This document shows, piece after piece, positions 1-13,822 of a stretch of 64,000 nt of DNA. The position numbers and the translations under genes were made by a program. Under the pieces are notes generated by a model that was given only the letters and a program-made list of their open reading frames with translations, was not told the DNA's origin and made no database searches. Source of the stretch: a virus; the IMG/VR virus record IMGVR_UViG_3300037424_000479; one strand, given 5' to 3'. Position 1 is the stretch's first letter, and each line of letters starts with the position of its first letter.

Positions 1-938
1 TTAGCTTTCAATTCTGGTATACGTGAGGCCCCCTTAAATTCCCATCCCCACCTCGTTAGAATAGGGTCACAATATTTATGCAAAAAAGAATACTCGTTAG
101 AGAATATCCTTGGTGCAAGCATATGTACCGTCTGGTATAGCTGTGCAGGATATGAAAGGAATGGAGTGCCCGACAGGCATATAACAGCAGGAGACTTAGA
201 GGCGAGATATTGTACAGATTGCGTACGCTTTACAAGGGTCTTGACCGTGACATTCTTCCCTTCCTCTGTAGGAACAGAAACATTTCGATGCTTGTTCGAG
301 GCGTAATGGGACTCGTCTATAATTATGGCGTCATACTCCCACACCTCAATCATATCTATCCAGTGCGTAAGGATATCGTAATTTATTATTAACACCTGAA
401 TGCGCTTATCTATCTGGTACGGAGTACGTCCATACAGCGATTGCGCCCGTAAAGATGACCATTTCTTTACTTCTTGTTCCCATACCAGTTTTGATATGGA
501 GGGGCACACGACGAGGATATGTTGCTTCTTCGCATACAGACACCACGCTAGAGAGGTGAGGGACTTACCAAGACGGGGGGCGAAAGCAAGGAGAGCCTTA
601 CCCTTGAACGTCTCAATGAAGCGTACACCTTCTATCTGATATGAACGTAGCCCCGGCACAAGGAGCGCTTCGTCTATCTGGACTAGATTAACGTCGGATT
701 TCACTACAGCGGGGTATGACGCTTCAAGAGCCGCCTTCAACTCTTCAGAGAGGCTGTATCCATGCTTATGAAGTAAATTTATATTAGCTATACTATAGGG
801 GATTGTCCAGTACTTTTTTACAGGGTCGAACTGTCTGGAAGGGAGGGACTTAATAAAAGCTAACTCTTTACCAAATTCATCCTTTGATACATAAAACGAT
901 ATTACTAACCTATTATTCTGTATATCTACTTTTCGCAC
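1..938 (-). CDS. SNF2-family helicase with N-terminal HARP-like domain (SMARCAL1-like); runs off left edge
   Basis: Absent from ORF track because it has no stop in the window. Manual translation from GTG at 938 (SD AAGGAG): IKSLPSRQFDPVKKYWTIP (HARP-like), LRSYQIEG, AFAPRLGKS (motif I), LVVCP, IIIDESH (motif II), CLSGTP (motif III). Confidence 0.88.
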   Translation of the reverse strand, partial: MRKVDIQNNRLVISFYVSKDEFGKELAFIKSLPSRQFDPVKKYWTIPYSIANINLLHKHGYSLSEELKAALEASYPAVVKSDVNLVQIDEALLVPGLRSYQIEGVRFIETFKGKALLAFAPRLGKSLTSLAWCLYAKKQHILVVCPSISKLVWEQEVKKWSSLRAQSLYGRTPYQIDKRIQVLIINYDILTHWIDMIEVWEYDAIIIDESHYASNKHRNVSVPTEEGKNVTVKTLVKRTQSVQYLASKSPAVICLSGTPFLSYPAQLYQTVHMLAPRIFSNEYSFLHKYCDPILTRWGWEFKGASRIPELKA

Positions 939-1729
939 TGGGGCTCCTTGTCCGAATAAAACTCATTTCTATACAGTTCTAACCATTTAGTAATAAAAGC
1001 ATTTTTGGCTTCTGATGAAGAGGCGTATGGCCCCAATTTATGATGGACATCTCCCCTAGATATTTTACAATAGTAAACACCATTACTACCTGTCCAATTA
1101 CCTCTGAATATTTGGTTCAGATTAGACTGTATTGCCGCCCAAGCATCACTTATTTGTTCATATGACCATAGATAACCCTTATATAATTTAAGAGGTACAA
1201 GATTATTACATATCTGTGAAATGAGTCCTATGCTGAATTTTTTAGATAACTGTGAAAGCGTACTATATTCAGCAACAAGCCTTCCATCCAAATCATACTG
1301 AAATACGGTTCTCTTATCATGCATACACCCTCGTTGTGCCTCAGTCCTTAATTGTGTAATAAAATGCATATTATTTTCCAGCATTGTCACCCATTCAAGA
1401 TTAGAGGCATTATTATTGTGTTTCTTGCCATCTATATGATTAACATATAAAGGTTCATCTGAAAATTTACGTGGACAATATGTGTCTGCTACTAAAGTAT
1501 GCACTAGAAAATGCTTATGCTTCTTTGGGAGCAGTGTAATACTTACAGTTAAGTACCCCTCTTTATGAAATCCAATCTTAGGAGTGTCCTTTCTCAAAAA
1601 ATACGCAGAAGTTGGTGCAACAAAAGAATTATAATATGCCACATCTATTTTAATAATGCCTGTGCTACTAACTAAAATATGGGGATATCTAGGGTGTGCC
1701 TTGAAAGCTCCGTTTATGCTATGCGCCAT
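926..1729 (-). CDS. Free-standing HNH homing endonuclease (HNH_3 plus NUMOD1-like DNA-binding domain)
   Basis: VHTLVADTY...VNHIDGKKHNNNASNLEWVT; RTVFQYDLDGRLVAEY is NUMOD1-like. Confidence 0.88.
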   Translation of the reverse strand: MAHSINGAFKAHPRYPHILVSSTGIIKIDVAYYNSFVAPTSAYFLRKDTPKIGFHKEGYLTVSITLLPKKHKHFLVHTLVADTYCPRKFSDEPLYVNHIDGKKHNNNASNLEWVTMLENNMHFITQLRTEAQRGCMHDKRTVFQYDLDGRLVAEYSTLSQLSKKFSIGLISQICNNLVPLKLYKGYLWSYEQISDAWAAIQSNLNQIFRGNWTGSNGVYYCKISRGDVHHKLGPYASSSEAKNAFITKWLELYRNEFYSDKEPQCEK

Positions 1730-3035: not shown

Positions 3036-3911
3036 TTATCCAAATGTCAATGCGTGTATTTGTCCCACTTCCTCTTGGGTACAATCCCCCGGATCATGGT
3101 CAAGCCCAATGTCCAATATCTCCACTTCTGTTCCTAAACAAGCCAACTGTTCTGCATACCTTTTGGCTTTCTTCTGTGCTATTTCTTCTGGATCAAATAT
3201 AAATACAACTTTCTTGAATTCACTGAGAGCTATAATCTGCTTCTGTGTCATGGTAGTACCCAGACCACAGACGTAATCATCCCCCATCCTGAATACATCA
3301 TAGGTGCCTTCTAGGACACCTACAATATCTTTATTGCAGTTCTGTATATTAAATAGAATGTCTTTTGGGTTCTGTACACTCTTTACTACTGAGAGGGTCT
3401 TATAACGCTCTTCCTGTTGCCCCGTTATATCTCTACCCTGGTACGTTAATAGCTTACCATTTCTATCATATACAGGGGTTAGAATTCTATAACGCCAATC
3501 CCCTGATATGCCACCATACGTGAGATGATACTTTTGTTCAAGAAATAAAGGATCGAATTTACGACCCTTTAGATAACGTAAAGCCTCAATGGGTAGGGGG
3601 TCTCCTGGCATCTCAAGATGAAGCGCTTCCGCTCTCTTACGCATAATCTGTATACGCGGAGCATCTTCATACTTCTCTTGTACTGCATCAGGATCGAGCT
3701 TAGGAGTGAGCGTATGTATAACACGCCATAGAGACTTGCCTCCGCATTTCCAGCAGAAGCAGTTCGCGGCACTTAGGTTAATTCCAAGGTGATTGCTGTG
3801 ATCCCCGCAGAAAGGGCACTGGACATTGACCCATCCAGGTTGACAGTTCTTGCCAGATGTCCAGTATTGTATATGACTGTCACTGAGATATCGTATAACA
3901 TCAAACGCCAT
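3036..3911 (-). CDS. DNA primase (zinc finger plus Toprim)
   Basis: CPFCGDHSNHLG..C.C..CG zinc finger; YQGRDI; VLEGTYD and FIFDPE Toprim motifs. Confidence 0.9.
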   Translation of the reverse strand: MAFDVIRYLSDSHIQYWTSGKNCQPGWVNVQCPFCGDHSNHLGINLSAANCFCWKCGGKSLWRVIHTLTPKLDPDAVQEKYEDAPRIQIMRKRAEALHLEMPGDPLPIEALRYLKGRKFDPLFLEQKYHLTYGGISGDWRYRILTPVYDRNGKLLTYQGRDITGQQEERYKTLSVVKSVQNPKDILFNIQNCNKDIVGVLEGTYDVFRMGDDYVCGLGTTMTQKQIIALSEFKKVVFIFDPEEIAQKKAKRYAEQLACLGTEVEILDIGLDHDPGDCTQEEVGQIHALTFG

Positions 3912-5629: not shown

Positions 5630-5973
5630 TTCGTCCTCCCTTCCGCTTTCATAAGAGCTTCACGTGCAATATCACAAGGCTCTTTATAACCATTATACCA
5701 ATCACAATTATGTATCGCTTCAAGTGCCTCCTGTAACTCCTCTATCTCTGCCTTTAGCGGGGCCTCAATAGAGATATCATGGGCAAGTACAAAAGCTTGA
5801 GCCGCGATCTGCGATTCTACAAGTGTAAACTCGTTTCGGATGTTAAGTACAAGAGCTGATAGCATATCTTCACTTGGGATCATTTCTATCCTCCTTGTAT
5901 TCACTTTCACGGTATATTTTGGCATTGCGATATTCTCGGCCCCACCGCATCGCCGCAAGAGCATGTGTGGCAT
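5626..5973 (-). CDS. Hypothetical protein (true start probably internal)
   Basis: Coupled to YopX by ATGA overlap; contains EAPLKAEIE motif. Confidence 0.6.
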   Translation of the reverse strand: MPHMLLRRCGGAENIAMPKYTVKVNTRRIEMIPSEDMLSALVLNIRNEFTLVESQIAAQAFVLAHDISIEAPLKAEIEELQEALEAIHNCDWYNGYKEPCDIAREALMKAEGRTK

Positions 5974-6058
5974 TACCTATAGTCTCGTATCTTCGGGCGT
6001 TCTCATATTTTACAGTGACCCCGGTACCATCAGCCTTCCAACACCCATGGATCAAACA

Positions 6059-6298
6059 TTATACCCCTTCCTCTCTCGTTGATATAGTTTTTATTTCAAC
6101 TCTGTATGTCTCAGGCGATATCTCAAAAAGACCTAGTATAGTAACCCCACTAGTTGGGGCTAGATTGTACGTTTTTCTTACGTATTCCCTACACTGTCCT
6201 AGATCAATATTTTCACAACGAGAACTAACAAATACGTTACCAGACTGTTGTTCGCATTTATATGCAACTAGCCAAAACGACATTCGTTTCTTTTTCAC
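6059..6298 (-). CDS. Hypothetical protein
   Basis: Coupled to neighbours by start/stop overlap. Confidence 0.6.
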   Translation of the reverse strand: MKKKRMSFWLVAYKCEQQSGNVFVSSRCENIDLGQCREYVRKTYNLAPTSGVTILGLFEISPETYRVEIKTISTREEGV

Positions 6299-9180: not shown

Positions 9181-10593
9181 TTAATCAATATCGGGGGTCA
9201 ATAACTTCCAATCGACATAATTCCACGAACCCGTCTCCTGCGTAATGTAGGGATCATCATAACTCTTAGCTAATACAGGTGCTTGAAGGCTATGATATAC
9301 CCACCGAGCAAACATAAGCCAAGCTCTATTTGATGTATCATAGGGACGTACCTCTGTCCAGAAATTCTTGATCTTAGCGTGTTCAGCATGGCCCTCATGT
9401 ACAAAATCAATCATACGACGAAGGATGATAAACCACTTAGTATAATTTCCTATACCAAGGCGGCTCTGCATCACTTCAGGATATGCCTCATACCACTCCC
9501 ATATATCGTTGGAGACTTTCAAAAGGTTGTTCAGGGATGTGTGACTCCTGGATAGAATCCCATCCCACTCATTCATACGCTTCTTACTCTCTATCCAATC
9601 GGTGATATCCTTCGGAACAGAGAGGGGCTTCGCAGTCTTCTCTTCTTTAATAGGAGGGGTGTTCACAGACGGCGTGGCCTCCTTACGTGCAACAGGGGTA
9701 CTAGATATAGTAGGTGAGGCTTTCTTAACATAAGTCAAAAACATAGAATGCCATTGTTTAGTGGCAAAATTGTAGTTTAAGAAGTAATCGGCCATGCCCA
9801 TCTTACGCCCGTTTAGCCTAACACCAGACATACACTTAACGAGTGTATCTACATTGTATTCTGGTAGCGCCATTCCCTTATACTGTGAAGGAATAAGATC
9901 AGCGTACCGGGTCATAAACGATCCATCAAGGAGGGCGTCAAGATACTCCTGAAGCTGAGAAAGTGCCTTCGTAGGGGCGGAGACGTTAATGCGCGGTGCT
10001 GTAAACGTATCTTGGTTGGCCTCTAGAACAGCCTCTATAAATGAAACCGTAGTAGGGTATATGGCCCCCTCAACCTGGACGGGGGGTTCATCCGGCGTCT
10101 CCTCCGTCCTCTCGAACGCCTCAACAAAAGGGGAGGTACCCATCACTTCCAGATTGGAAATAAGGGTGCCCATGGCTTCTTCTCGGATAGCATAGAACGT
10201 CTGTTTACTCCCTCGGTATCCGGCCTTACTTGCGTTCAGCGTCACCTTCATTAAGGGATAGTCCTCTACCTTGAATTCCTCATATACACCAGTCTCCACC
10301 TCGTATCCACATAGGCGATTGAGATGGTTATGAATTGTCCTTGTAGCGTTGTAGCCATACAGCGCACAGAGAGGGAGTAGTGCGCGAGGGCTTACCCAGT
10401 AGTAAGTGCGCCCCTCATGGGTTACAGAATCGGTACATATGGTATGGAGTTTGAATTCCATAGCCAACTGCGTGAGTAGGTCAAGGTCACAAAGGTTAAG
10501 CCCTAGGGAAAGTGCATAGGGTATATCCTCTATGACGTATTGACATTGCCTGTAGGGAAGTACACCTGTACCCCCCTTGTCATCTTCTACCAT
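9181..10593 (-). CDS. Putative replication initiator (N-terminal winged HTH)
   Basis: EGRTYYWVSPRALL...TIHNHLNRL resembles phage replisome-organizer wHTH; lies next to the repeat array. Confidence 0.55.
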   Translation of the reverse strand: MVEDDKGGTGVLPYRQCQYVIEDIPYALSLGLNLCDLDLLTQLAMEFKLHTICTDSVTHEGRTYYWVSPRALLPLCALYGYNATRTIHNHLNRLCGYEVETGVYEEFKVEDYPLMKVTLNASKAGYRGSKQTFYAIREEAMGTLISNLEVMGTSPFVEAFERTEETPDEPPVQVEGAIYPTTVSFIEAVLEANQDTFTAPRINVSAPTKALSQLQEYLDALLDGSFMTRYADLIPSQYKGMALPEYNVDTLVKCMSGVRLNGRKMGMADYFLNYNFATKQWHSMFLTYVKKASPTISSTPVARKEATPSVNTPPIKEEKTAKPLSVPKDITDWIESKKRMNEWDGILSRSHTSLNNLLKVSNDIWEWYEAYPEVMQSRLGIGNYTKWFIILRRMIDFVHEGHAEHAKIKNFWTEVRPYDTSNRAWLMFARWVYHSLQAPVLAKSYDDPYITQETGSWNYVDWKLLTPDID

Positions 10594-10708
10594 CTTACCG
10601 CCTTTCTTATATATCCAGAGACAAGATGAACCTGCATCTCAAGTCCAATAGTGATAGCCTCAACACCGGATTTCAGTGCCACAGTTCCCGCATATTGATA
10701 GAGGATGG

Positions 10709-10737
10709 ACAATACTAAGTAAAGTCAAAGAAGTCAA
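10709..10737 (-). promoter_or_regulatory. Sigma70-like promoter for putative initiator
   Basis: TTGACT-17 nt-TATTGT on minus strand. Confidence 0.5.
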
Positions 10738-10896
10738 GTACCCCCATGAGTTATTCTGATAGTCTATACAACGGTATACTTACAACTTGAGTTGTAGGTA
10801 TTATTCTGACAACCTCGCACACGTATGCGGAGTCATTCTTACCAACACCTATCAAACATTAGGTAGCCTTATGAAAGTTCATAAGGTAGGATACAC

Positions 10897-11129
10897 TCAC
10901 GCCTTATATAGCATGAGTCACATTGATCTTAGCTGTAATAGCGTATAACTCATGCCTTATATGGCATACATACCCTATAACCCACTGTAACTCATACCGC
11001 ATATAGCAGGATAATGCATCTCTTTTAGGTGAGGATACTGTTCAATCATGCCTCATAAGGCAGGATAATAGTGTATTCAAGCCAAAAAAGGCATGAGAGT
11101 GCCCTGGAATCATGCCGGAAAAGGCTCCT
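10897..11129. repeat. Array of six degenerate palindromes TCATGCC-N6-GGCATGA (iteron/operator-like)
   Basis: Copies start at 10897, 10950, 10992, 11046, 11077, 11110. Confidence 0.8.
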
Positions 11130-11174
11130 ATATAATATATAAAATATAAGAGTAAGAGAAAAGAGAATATAAGA

Positions 11175-11310
11175 AATATAGGACTTCACTTCGTTCAGTC
11201 GATACACTCACTTCGTTCGTGCATCTCCTTTACTTCGTTCGCCTATATTGAGAATGGGCAGTCGTGATACGACTACCTCACTTCGTTCGGTAGCCTTTAT
11301 CACTATGCCC
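11175..11310. repeat. Hairpin cluster with repeated T(C/T)ACTTCGTTC loop
   Basis: Motif at 11186, 11208, 11230, 11278; three copies are closed by different stems. Confidence 0.8.
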
Positions 11311-11457
11311 TAAAACCATATGTTAAATATATTGGCTAATGTAGTCTAATGTATTATATATACATTCATGTTATATTTCACCTAGTACATCTCTTATAGT
11401 ATTCACCTAGATTTGAAAACATTAACCCAAATAACTGGCGGCCCCGCCCGCTCCCGC

Positions 11458-11487
11458 TTGACAAGGGTACTCTAAATCCTATATAGT
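11458..11487 (+). promoter_or_regulatory. Sigma70-like promoter
   Basis: TTGACA-18 nt-TATAGT upstream of 11607. Confidence 0.55.
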
Positions 11488-11606
11488 GCATATCGCTCAC
11501 AAGGGGCTTTCAAACAGCTAGTCCTAGTACACGGACGCTTTTCGCTACAAAATGCGTTGGTGACAATCCTAGGGCCTATAGCGTCGATTTTAAGAAGGAG
11601 TCTACC

Positions 11607-12630: not shown

Positions 12631-13169
12631 GTACGGAAAAGGAATTAAACAGCGTACAGAAAATTTATGAGCAGGGGAATTGCAGGGAGGTACGCTGTTA
12701 TGAATGCCCCGGATGGGATTTGGACTGTTCTAGCATAAATAAGGGTGGTGCATTTTGGTTGCATTGTCGTGACCTTCTCGTAAAGGCAGGACGCATACCC
12801 GCCTGTGTAACTGAGCCTGTTCATGATTCTTATTTAGCTCCCCTAGAAGCACGGATTACTGCTCTTGAAAATGAACGAATAGAAGAGCATGAAGAAGGTA
12901 ATGGGGGCGAAAAGGAGCCTATCAAAATAGAATATAGTAGGTATAAGTTATACCTTTGTTTTAAGTACAACAATTGGTATATTTTAACTTGCAACAATGA
13001 GGGTGGTGATGCACGTTGGAATAGTTTTGAAAATGGCAATGTTTCACAACAGACGCTGAGTAGTTCATACGATAGTTGTCAAATAGCCATTGATAGTGTT
13101 GGAGAAGGAAAGATTAAGATTTTTGACAATATAAAAGAAGGACTTCTCTTCTTTGCGAATCAGAAGTAG
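12627..13169 (+). CDS. Hypothetical protein with Cys-rich N-terminus
   Basis: ATGA overlap with upstream gene. Confidence 0.65.
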   Translation: MSTEKELNSVQKIYEQGNCREVRCYECPGWDLDCSSINKGGAFWLHCRDLLVKAGRIPACVTEPVHDSYLAPLEARITALENERIEEHEEGNGGEKEPIKIEYSRYKLYLCFKYNNWYILTCNNEGGDARWNSFENGNVSQQTLSSSYDSCQIAIDSVGEGKIKIFDNIKEGLLFFANQK

Positions 13170-13174
13170 GTTAT

Positions 13175-13822
13175 ATGGATATAACAGACAAAGAGATAGA
13201 AGAGGATGTACAGAAGGAGATACAGGAATTTTTACCGGGATATGATAACGCCCTGGTAAAAGACCTGTCCTTAAAGCCAGTTGAGATAAGTTTCATTTAC
13301 TATTACGTCGAAGCGAATTTCAACGAGGGTGAGGCGTATCAGAAGGCGTACCAGTATAGCGATAAGTACAAGGCCAAGTACTACGCCAAGAAGCTACTCA
13401 AGCGCCCCGATATACAGGATGGGCTCAATCGTATCCTTGGGGAAGTGTGGAGGGAATCGGTACGGAAGCTTCCCCATCAAGTCATGGAGTCCTATCAGCG
13501 GGTGCTGAACCTTGATGTTAGCGATTATTATGATGACGATGGAATGGCAATACCGCTATCTAGCATCTCCAAGGAGAAGCGTTCTCTCATAGGGAATGTG
13601 CAGTATGTGATGAACAGTAAGACCGGGGCGGTATACATCCAGTATGACCTCCCGGATAAGAAAGATTCCCTTGCGGCGCTATTCTCTCTCATCAAGCTAC
13701 ATAAGGAACTGATAGGGGATGACGGTAAGGACGAGAACGCAGAGGCTTCTAAGAAGCGTAATGAGATATTCAATTCGGTGGATGATGTAGAGATGAAGCC
13801 TGTAGAGGCTATAGAAGGATAG
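13175..13822 (+). CDS. terS: Terminase small subunit
   Basis: FIYYYVEANFNEGEAYQKAY...AKKLLKRPDIQ HTH; DLPDKKDSLAAL segment. Confidence 0.8.
   Translation: MDITDKEIEEDVQKEIQEFLPGYDNALVKDLSLKPVEISFIYYYVEANFNEGEAYQKAYQYSDKYKAKYYAKKLLKRPDIQDGLNRILGEVWRESVRKLPHQVMESYQRVLNLDVSDYYDDDGMAIPLSSISKEKRSLIGNVQYVMNSKTGAVYIQYDLPDKKDSLAALFSLIKLHKELIGDDGKDENAEASKKRNEIFNSVDDVEMKPVEAIEG

Follow-up and report, generated by a model that had tools for sequence, protein, structure and literature searches.

The main gene-free gap in a phage genome contains a cluster of three intact hairpins and one decayed copy, formed by one DNA strand and sharing an 11-base tip, and the same tip caps unrelated hairpins in many phages, bacteria and archaea. 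The rules of this tip match those of a known ultra-stable DNA mini-hairpin, and it therefore probably marks a site that works as single-stranded DNA, most likely at the replication origin, although this function is inferred and rests on sequence analysis alone. The analyzed stretch, here called the window, comprises 64 kb of a roughly 79-kb phage contig from a sediment metagenome. A preliminary description had reported one 11-nt word on different stems in this window and had interpreted it as a single-stranded structure, possibly a primase or single-strand initiation signal next to the putative origin, or else an undescribed non-coding RNA or protein-decoy motif. The observation could be confirmed in all its coordinates. 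The interpretation is only partly supported, as the inferred selection on a single-stranded fold holds, whereas the strand and the open loop that were assumed need correction and the proposed function remains an inference by analogy.

The hairpin cluster and its surroundings

The word TCACTTCGTTC occurs exactly at 11186, 11208 and 11278 and with one change at 11230, with no further exact copy in the 64 kb. Allowing one mismatch, 6 matches are found in the window against 0.60 expected, which none of 100 shuffles reaches, and four of the six lie within 103 nt. In the first hairpin (11182-11200), the copy at 11186-11196 is flanked by GACT (11182-11185) paired to AGTC (11197-11200), and on the minus strand this four-base-pair stem carries the cap GAACGAAGTGA. 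The second hairpin (11201-11225) has an exact cap at 11208-11218 on a stem of seven positions, GATaCAC (11201-11207) paired to GTGcATC (11219-11225). The third copy (11230-11240) is the degenerate TTACTTCGTTC, which reads GAACGAAGTAA on the minus strand; its change breaks one of the two G.A pairs of the cap, and it has no stem of its own but lies within an outer helix of ATATAGG (11176-11182) and CCTATAT (11242-11248) that encloses copies 1 to 3 (11176-11248) and is present in the minimum-energy folds of both strands. The fourth copy, at 11278-11288, is flanked by CTACC (11273-11277) and GGTAG (11289-11293), a stem that extends over seven positions with a G.U on the minus strand. It sits on an interrupted outer stem in which GGGCA (11256-11260) and GTGATA (11264-11269) face TATCAC (11298-11303) and TGCCC (11306-11310), and this domain (11256-11310) is the centroid structure on both strands. 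The predicted folds contain all of these helices.

While the preliminary description wrote the element on the plus strand, it is the minus strand that folds in this window. The A.C mismatches of the two imperfect stems on the plus strand are G.U or G.T wobbles on the minus strand, and as RNA the 146-nt region gives -52.6 kcal/mol on the minus strand (z -6.2, 0 of 200 shuffles as good), against -31.6 kcal/mol (z -1.8) on the plus strand. With DNA parameters, which carry no term for the particular stability of mini-hairpins, z is -2.0 against -0.2. The whole 501-nt core of the gap behaves in the same way, with z -6.0 on the minus strand against -2.5 on the plus strand.

The cluster lies in a gap of 1013 nt (10594-11606) between divergent gene blocks, at the minimum of cumulative GC skew, and no gene is called there in the public contig. 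To the left is a leftward block of small early genes and replication genes, including a DnaG-like primase (3036-3911), and to the right is a rightward block that reaches the small terminase gene (13175-13822). The phage also encodes UvsX, UvsY, a gp32-like SSB and a clamp loader. An A+T-rich tract that is purine-rich on the plus strand (11125-11182) adjoins the hairpins and is a candidate unwinding element, inferred from the sequence only, and the gap further holds six TCATGCC-N6-GGCATGA palindromes (10897-11125). On the minus strand, a leftward sigma-70-like promoter match (11353-11381, GTGAAA-17-TATAAT, 10 of 12 positions) would transcribe the hairpins as minus-sense RNA, and a terminator-like hairpin, GGCATGA..TCATGCC followed by TTTTTT, is found at 11082-11117. 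Both rest on consensus matching, in the latter case together with folding, and the number of such matches in the region is not above that in shuffles.

The first leftward gene (9181-10593) encodes an orphan protein of 470 residues without any Pfam or PHROG hit, and only two remote homologues were found among 1.8 billion representatives. Language-model feature comparison gave hits to HTH_36, Phage_rep_O and DnaD-like clusters at scores of 0.92-0.94 but with few shared features, so that a role as replication initiator is merely a weak lead. A BLAST search of the gap and of this protein against 50,697 phage records gave no match. Relatives were also sought through the 470-aa, a 227-aa and the small-terminase proteins, but only the source contig and two remote homologues on short contigs were returned, which precluded a comparison at the level of the locus. 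The only informative remote homologue of the 470-aa protein is encoded on a 1.5-kb contig (L268), which has upstream of that gene GNA-capped hairpins, one tipped TCGCTACGCTC and one reading GGGACTC-GAA-GAGTCCC, and three 12-bp direct repeats. Four sediment metagenome DNA runs contain the stretch, with all compared pieces identical to the window and thus without natural variants, and no RNA data set containing it is listed.

The same tip on unrelated hairpins

A scan of IMG/VR for two copies of the 10-mer spaced 8-38 nt apart returned at least 119 loci. About half of those retrieved belong to one family, the SSU5/pHCM2-type phage-plasmids of E. coli, Salmonella and Klebsiella, in which twin hairpins lie in the long non-coding region upstream of the RNase H gene, and the rest are unrelated contigs with 22-64% G+C. 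In many of these the word is directly flanked by inverted repeats of quite different sequence. A second scan, of one genome per prokaryotic species, returned at least 120 loci from Bacteroidota, Clostridia, Actinomycetota, Chloroflexota, candidate phyla, haloarchaea, Methanosarcinales, Woesearchaeota and others. The word is thus not special to this phage or its primase.

Whether homologs keep the word but lose the pairing, and whether the element matches an already characterized family, had been named beforehand as conditions that would refute the structural reading, and both came out in its favor. In 71 non-redundant contexts from other genomes, the six pairs flanking the word are 57.3% paired, against 40.9 +/- 2.0% in shuffles (0 of 500 as high) and 27-37% when the partner is slid, and all pair types are used. 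A control scan with the reversed word gave only 26 loci, all of them tandem repeats, and just 3 of its 69 contexts have a stem of 4 bp or more, against 25 of 124 for the real word. Rfam contained no relevant match at E up to 10 in the window region, at E up to 1 in the SSU5-type region, or at gathering score in 13 carrier loci. A covariance model, as had been suggested in the preliminary description, was built from 28 hairpins of other genomes and none from the window, and it finds on the minus strand hairpin 4 (11295-11271, 30.2 bits, E 1.1e-7), hairpin 2 (29.3 bits, E 2.3e-7) and hairpin 1 (11200-11182, 19.3 bits, E 9e-4), but not the degenerate third copy; the next hit in 64 kb is at E 0.41. 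A constant tip on changing but still paired stems indeed shows selection on a single-stranded fold rather than on a double-stranded DNA site.

A folded cap rather than an open loop

The pattern of variation indicates that the 11-mer is not an open loop displayed for a reader, as had been supposed, but a structured cap. In about 2.2 Mb of retrieved loci, positions 3 and 9 of the hairpin-flanked copies are A:T in 72 cases, G:C in 5 and C:G in 3, with no other combination. Single substitutions in hairpin-flanked copies fall at position 6 in 11 of 13 cases, namely in 4 of 6 for the A:T form and in 7 of 7 for the G:C form, and G5 and A7 of the purine strand never change. C4 and G8 are invariant and never swap in the two alignments that were made, and the stem pair adjoining the word is pyrimidine (5') to purine (3') in 91 of 97 cases (94%). 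Read on the purine strand, this gives Y-GA-RC-GNA-GY-GA-R, with a G-N-A triloop whose middle base is free, a C:G closing pair, one further Watson-Crick pair and two G.A/A.G positions, each in a 5'-YGAR-3' setting, in which tandem G.A pairs are sheared. In the window the cap reads GA-AC-GAA-GT-GA on the minus strand, that is, a GAA triloop closed by C:G, an A:T pair where other genomes can have G:C, and two stacked G.A/A.G mismatches on a pyrimidine:purine stem pair.

The first three of these features are the published rules of the DNA mini-hairpin d(GCGNAGC) described by Hirao and co-workers, also studied as d(GCGNNAGC) (PMC13037366), and of GNA triloops, which need a C:G closing pair (PMC3201870). 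The G:C form found in other genomes, GAGCGAAGCGA, contains GCGAAGC letter for letter. The window, however, has the A:T variant ACGAAGT, in which the second pair differs from the G:C of the canonical heptamer and for which we found no measured stability, and the natural cap is 11 nt long, always carries the two flanking G.A/A.G positions and sits on a longer, variable stem. On the pyrimidine strand the same positions have no structural meaning that we know of. The mini-hairpin is exceptionally stable as DNA and much less so as RNA, as r(GCGAAAGC) melts at 39 C against 76.5 C for the DNA form (PMC13037366), which points to selection at the level of single-stranded DNA.

Genomic context in phages and in cells

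In 14 of 15 carrier phage records that were checked, the degenerate word TCRCTNCGYTC occurs in one cluster only, and the fifteenth has two clusters 3 kb apart; the clusters comprise 2-13 copies, and the records include a complete genome of 139 kb, SSU5 (103 kb) and a complete T7-like genome of 41.7 kb. The clusters often sit beside replication genes. In T4-like contigs (L024/L030/L037, L055/L100/L119, L071 and L087) the neighbors are uvsY, uvsW and the late sigma factor gene gp55, and the clusters recur at equivalent places in related phages, as for example between uvsW and gp55. The contig sharing most genes with the window (L005) has a primase and helicases next to the cluster, another contig (L070) a family-B DNA polymerase, and SSU5 the RNase H gene, whereas in T7-like contigs the twin hairpins lie immediately after the 3' end of the large terminase gene. 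In L024, two pairs sit on opposite strands around a 140-bp center, and the purine caps lie on the strands that would template outward leading-strand synthesis.

Cellular copies are dispersed or lie in short tandem arrays beside ordinary genes such as those for two-component regulators, ABC transporters and methyltransferases, and they show neither a shared neighboring gene nor an orientation bias relative to genes. A shared partner gene was likewise not found in the phage loci, where only ordinary gene families were seen. In haloarchaea and actinobacteria, one arm of the hairpin can be the 3' end of a tRNA gene, as if the other arm had been copied from it. The cap thus is a general module, and its job in a phage need not be its job in a chromosome.

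A possible role at a replication origin

What the analysis itself establishes are the capped hairpins with their strand specificity, their uniqueness in the window and their place in the divergent gap next to an A+T-rich tract and a palindrome array, whereas the origin, the unwinding, the effect on single-strand binding protein and any helicase loading or priming are inferred. Our preferred, though tentative, reading is that the gap is the replication and early-control region of the phage, the origin being inferred only from GC skew, gene divergence, the A+T tract and the palindromes. When the A+T-rich tract opens, by initiator binding or by an R-loop from the leftward promoter-like site as at T4 oriF/oriG (PMC3016281), the minus strand would become single-stranded and snap into the capped hairpins. 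These would resist coating by single-strand binding protein, hold the bubble open and give the T4-type primase-helicase machinery of the phage a fixed place for landing and priming, and a primer made on the minus strand would be extended rightward, away from the A+T tract, as the leading strand.

The precedents are single-strand initiation (ssi) signals, namely the complementary-strand origins of the phages G4, St-1 and alpha3, with the mini-hairpin-containing hairpin I of G4, and ssiA/ssiB of plasmid RSF1010, which are read by the primase RepB' (PMC13037366, PMC8567376). These are hairpins on single-stranded template DNA with a GNA-type mini-hairpin that lie in or next to an origin, are exposed by unwinding and then primed, bind single-strand binding protein poorly and mark where a primer starts. 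The window differs in having three to four tandem copies on one strand instead of one site per strand as in RSF1010, an arrangement that is found in the T4-like contigs L024/L030/L037. Moreover, the conserved part here is the tip, while RepB' reads the 5' flank and the base of the stem, and the word is shared far beyond any one primase family. The T4-type primase word 5'-GYT-3' is present on the pyrimidine strand of the cap, but it cannot explain an 11-nt invariant shared with archaea. T4 origins consist of a promoter and an A+T-rich unwinding element (PMC3016281), which resembles the minus-strand order of promoter-like site, hairpins and A+T-rich tract in the window, but they are not described as needing hairpins. 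The early promoters of phage N4 are DNA hairpins with a short stem and a purine triloop of mini-hairpin type (GCGGAGC) on one strand, present in a few copies at one genome location and read as start signals by the virion RNA polymerase (PMC13037366). No gene for such a giant polymerase lies in the 64 kb, where the largest frame has 1071 residues, about 15 kb of the contig being outside the window, and the cap also occurs in cells and in phages of quite different types.

Several findings weaken the origin reading. GC skew in phages largely follows the direction of transcription, so the origin call is soft. Across the family, wobbles and A.C mismatches in the stems show no strand bias (G.T 10 against A.C 8), and in SSU5-type phage-plasmids the better-folding strand of the whole region carries the pyrimidine form. 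In some T4-like contigs the hairpin pairs are followed by T-runs and a promoter, which looks like terminators. As the same cap occurs as dispersed or tandem repeats beside ordinary genes in cells, it cannot be an origin signal everywhere.

Alternative explanations

The main alternative, which we consider less likely but which is not excluded, is an RNA element that folds in a leftward transcript starting at 11381-11353, either a small non-coding RNA of about 265 nt ending at the terminator-like hairpin 11117-11082 or the leader of the early leftward operon, and serving as a processing, stability, termination or antitermination signal or as a protein-docking platform. The strong minus-strand RNA fold, which no shuffle matched, the bracketing promoter- and terminator-like sites, the T-runs behind some pairs, a conserved region of about 250 nt with compensatory changes next to the hairpins of T4-like contigs and the conserved structured region adjoining those of SSU5-type carriers would agree with this. 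The match of the cap to a motif that is far more stable as DNA than as RNA, the lack of orientation bias in cells and the absence of an Rfam match speak against it, as does the fact that the caps would appear in opposite chemical forms in the putative RNAs, purine in the window and pyrimidine in SSU5. It is also rather unlikely that the hairpins are REP-like selfish or generic repeats of a pan-prokaryotic family, in which a stable cap nucleates the fold and the stems are free to vary, that spread or arise repeatedly and merely accumulate in the largest gene-free gap of the phage without a dedicated role there. The cellular distribution, with at least 120 loci in many bacterial phyla and in archaea, and the arms shared with tRNA genes would fit, but a spreading repeat would not be expected to be confined to a single cluster in 14 of 15 phage records. 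The clusters also recur at equivalent places in related phages, and the window copies are embedded in larger helices. REP/BIME/REPIN repeats mobilized by RAYT transposases are likewise small intergenic hairpins, dispersed or clustered, that fold as single strands, but there the stem and a 5' GTAG foot are conserved within a genome, whereas here the tip is conserved across domains of life, the window stems are unrelated and no transposase gene accompanies the copies.

A packaging or genome-end signal, acting in concatemer processing or end replication near the start of the packaging module, seems still less probable. The small terminase gene lies 1.9 kb to the right, the hairpins of T7-like contigs lie where T7-type genomes end, and several clusters (in the records G005, G003, G009 and G008) are within about 0.05-1.1 kb of contig ends. 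Yet three genes separate the cluster from the terminase gene in the window, the neighbors in SSU5, L005, L070 and the T4-like contigs are replication or transcription genes, and contig ends may simply reflect assembly breaks. Very unlikely, finally, are double-stranded iterons bound by an initiator or repressor. The spacing of 22, 22 and 48 bp, in the first cases two helical turns, the single orientation and a contig (L002) with seven successive copies 33 bp apart and only 2-bp flanking complementarity could suggest them, but the flanks covary across genomes, spacing in other phages runs from 18 to 27 bp and tracks stem length, and the 3/9 covariation and free position 6 have no reason under a duplex-reading model. 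An identical word across bacteria, archaea and phages would also require one conserved DNA-binding protein, and none co-occurs. An IHF site, a DnaA box, a tRNA T-loop mimic, a likeness to 5S rRNA loop C, a UUCG tetraloop, type III antitoxin repeats, CRISPR-repeat mimics and sequencing-adapter artifacts were dismissed, because the pattern of conserved and free positions does not fit or because the element occurs in finished genomes of cultured phage-plasmids.

Significance

Beyond the preliminary description, the structure of the cap and its wide distribution are new. Text searches for the word and its variants returned only primers and unrelated sequences, and in the library searched we found no paper describing the element. 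The finding links the ultra-stable GNA mini-hairpin, a chemically well-studied oddity so far tied to a handful of model replicons (G4, RSF1010, N4), with a very large natural family of hairpins in phages, bacteria and archaea. A far-reaching view, which we regard as unlikely, would be that the cap GA-RC-GNA-GY-GA is a universal single-strand DNA punctuation mark of Bacteria, Archaea and their viruses, read through some shared property or factor, whose single cluster in phage genomes marks the origin or another unique site that works as single-stranded DNA; origins of uncultured phages could then be read directly from sequence. Such sites are almost impossible to find in uncultured phages, and a short word with clear structural rules that occurs in one cluster in 14 of 15 carrier phage records, often next to replication genes, would be a practical marker if its role is confirmed.

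In the window, six degenerate palindromes of the form TCATGCC-N6-GGCATGA lie to the left of the A+T tract, at 10897-11125, and the last of these is followed on the minus strand by TTTTTT, so that it looks like a terminator. Two sigma-70-like promoter matches are arranged back to back about 70 bp apart, namely TTGACA-18-TATAGT at 11458-11487 on the plus strand, with 11 of 12 positions matching, and GTGAAA-17-TATAAT at 11381-11353 on the minus strand, with 10 of 12 positions matching. The rightward first gene has an AAGGAG ribosome-binding site, and these features together point to a host with standard promoters and Shine-Dalgarno use. In the leftward block, an HNH/NUMOD1 homing-endonuclease-like gene is found between replication genes (926-1729, minus strand).

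In T4-like viral contigs, a conserved non-coding element of about 250 nt is located between uvsW.1 and the late sigma factor gene (9250-9620 in contig L024 and 130-480 in contig L055). This element shows compensatory changes, for example GAATG/CATTC against GGTTG/CAACC, and CCTTG/CAAGG against CCTGG/CCAGG, and has no match in Rfam. It is a candidate structured RNA or origin element of T4-like phages. In the SSU5-type phage-plasmid L017, the long structured non-coding region upstream of rnhA (5840-6275) ends in the twin capped hairpins. Here it is the plus strand that folds better (z -3.9 against -3.0), and the hairpin module is almost invariant over 24 sequence variants, with one C/T polymorphism that is A.C on the plus strand and G.T on the minus strand. 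The viral contig L002 carries 13 copies of the cap in 1.06 kb of non-coding DNA (about 1060-2100). Seven successive copies are 33 bp apart and have almost no flanking stems. In a further contig with a hairpin cluster, L090, a pistol ribozyme (Rfam RF02679, 60.2 bits) is present at 13088-13158, about 2 kb from that cluster.

In haloarchaea and actinobacteria, capped hairpins start exactly at the 3' end of tRNA genes, as found in the loci L185 (4293-4434), L163 (about 1672-1842), L167 and L229. These hairpins use the acceptor and T-stem strand of the tRNA as one arm and an inverted copy of it as the other. In Bacteroidales, Clostridia and other phyla (loci L153, L184, L192, L257, L263 and others), tandem arrays with a period of 34-48 nt are built from a longer conserved unit, in which ..GATTCT or GATTGC is followed by the cap and then by AGAATGACAG or GCAATGACAG, and this unit is shared across phyla.

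The contig L268 contains a remote homologue of the 470-aa gene of the window. Upstream of this homologue, at 60-180, lie a hairpin tipped TCGCTACGCTC, a perfect GGGACTC-GAA-GAGTCCC hairpin and three direct repeats of ATCTCTTAGCTA, an arrangement that looks like an origin.
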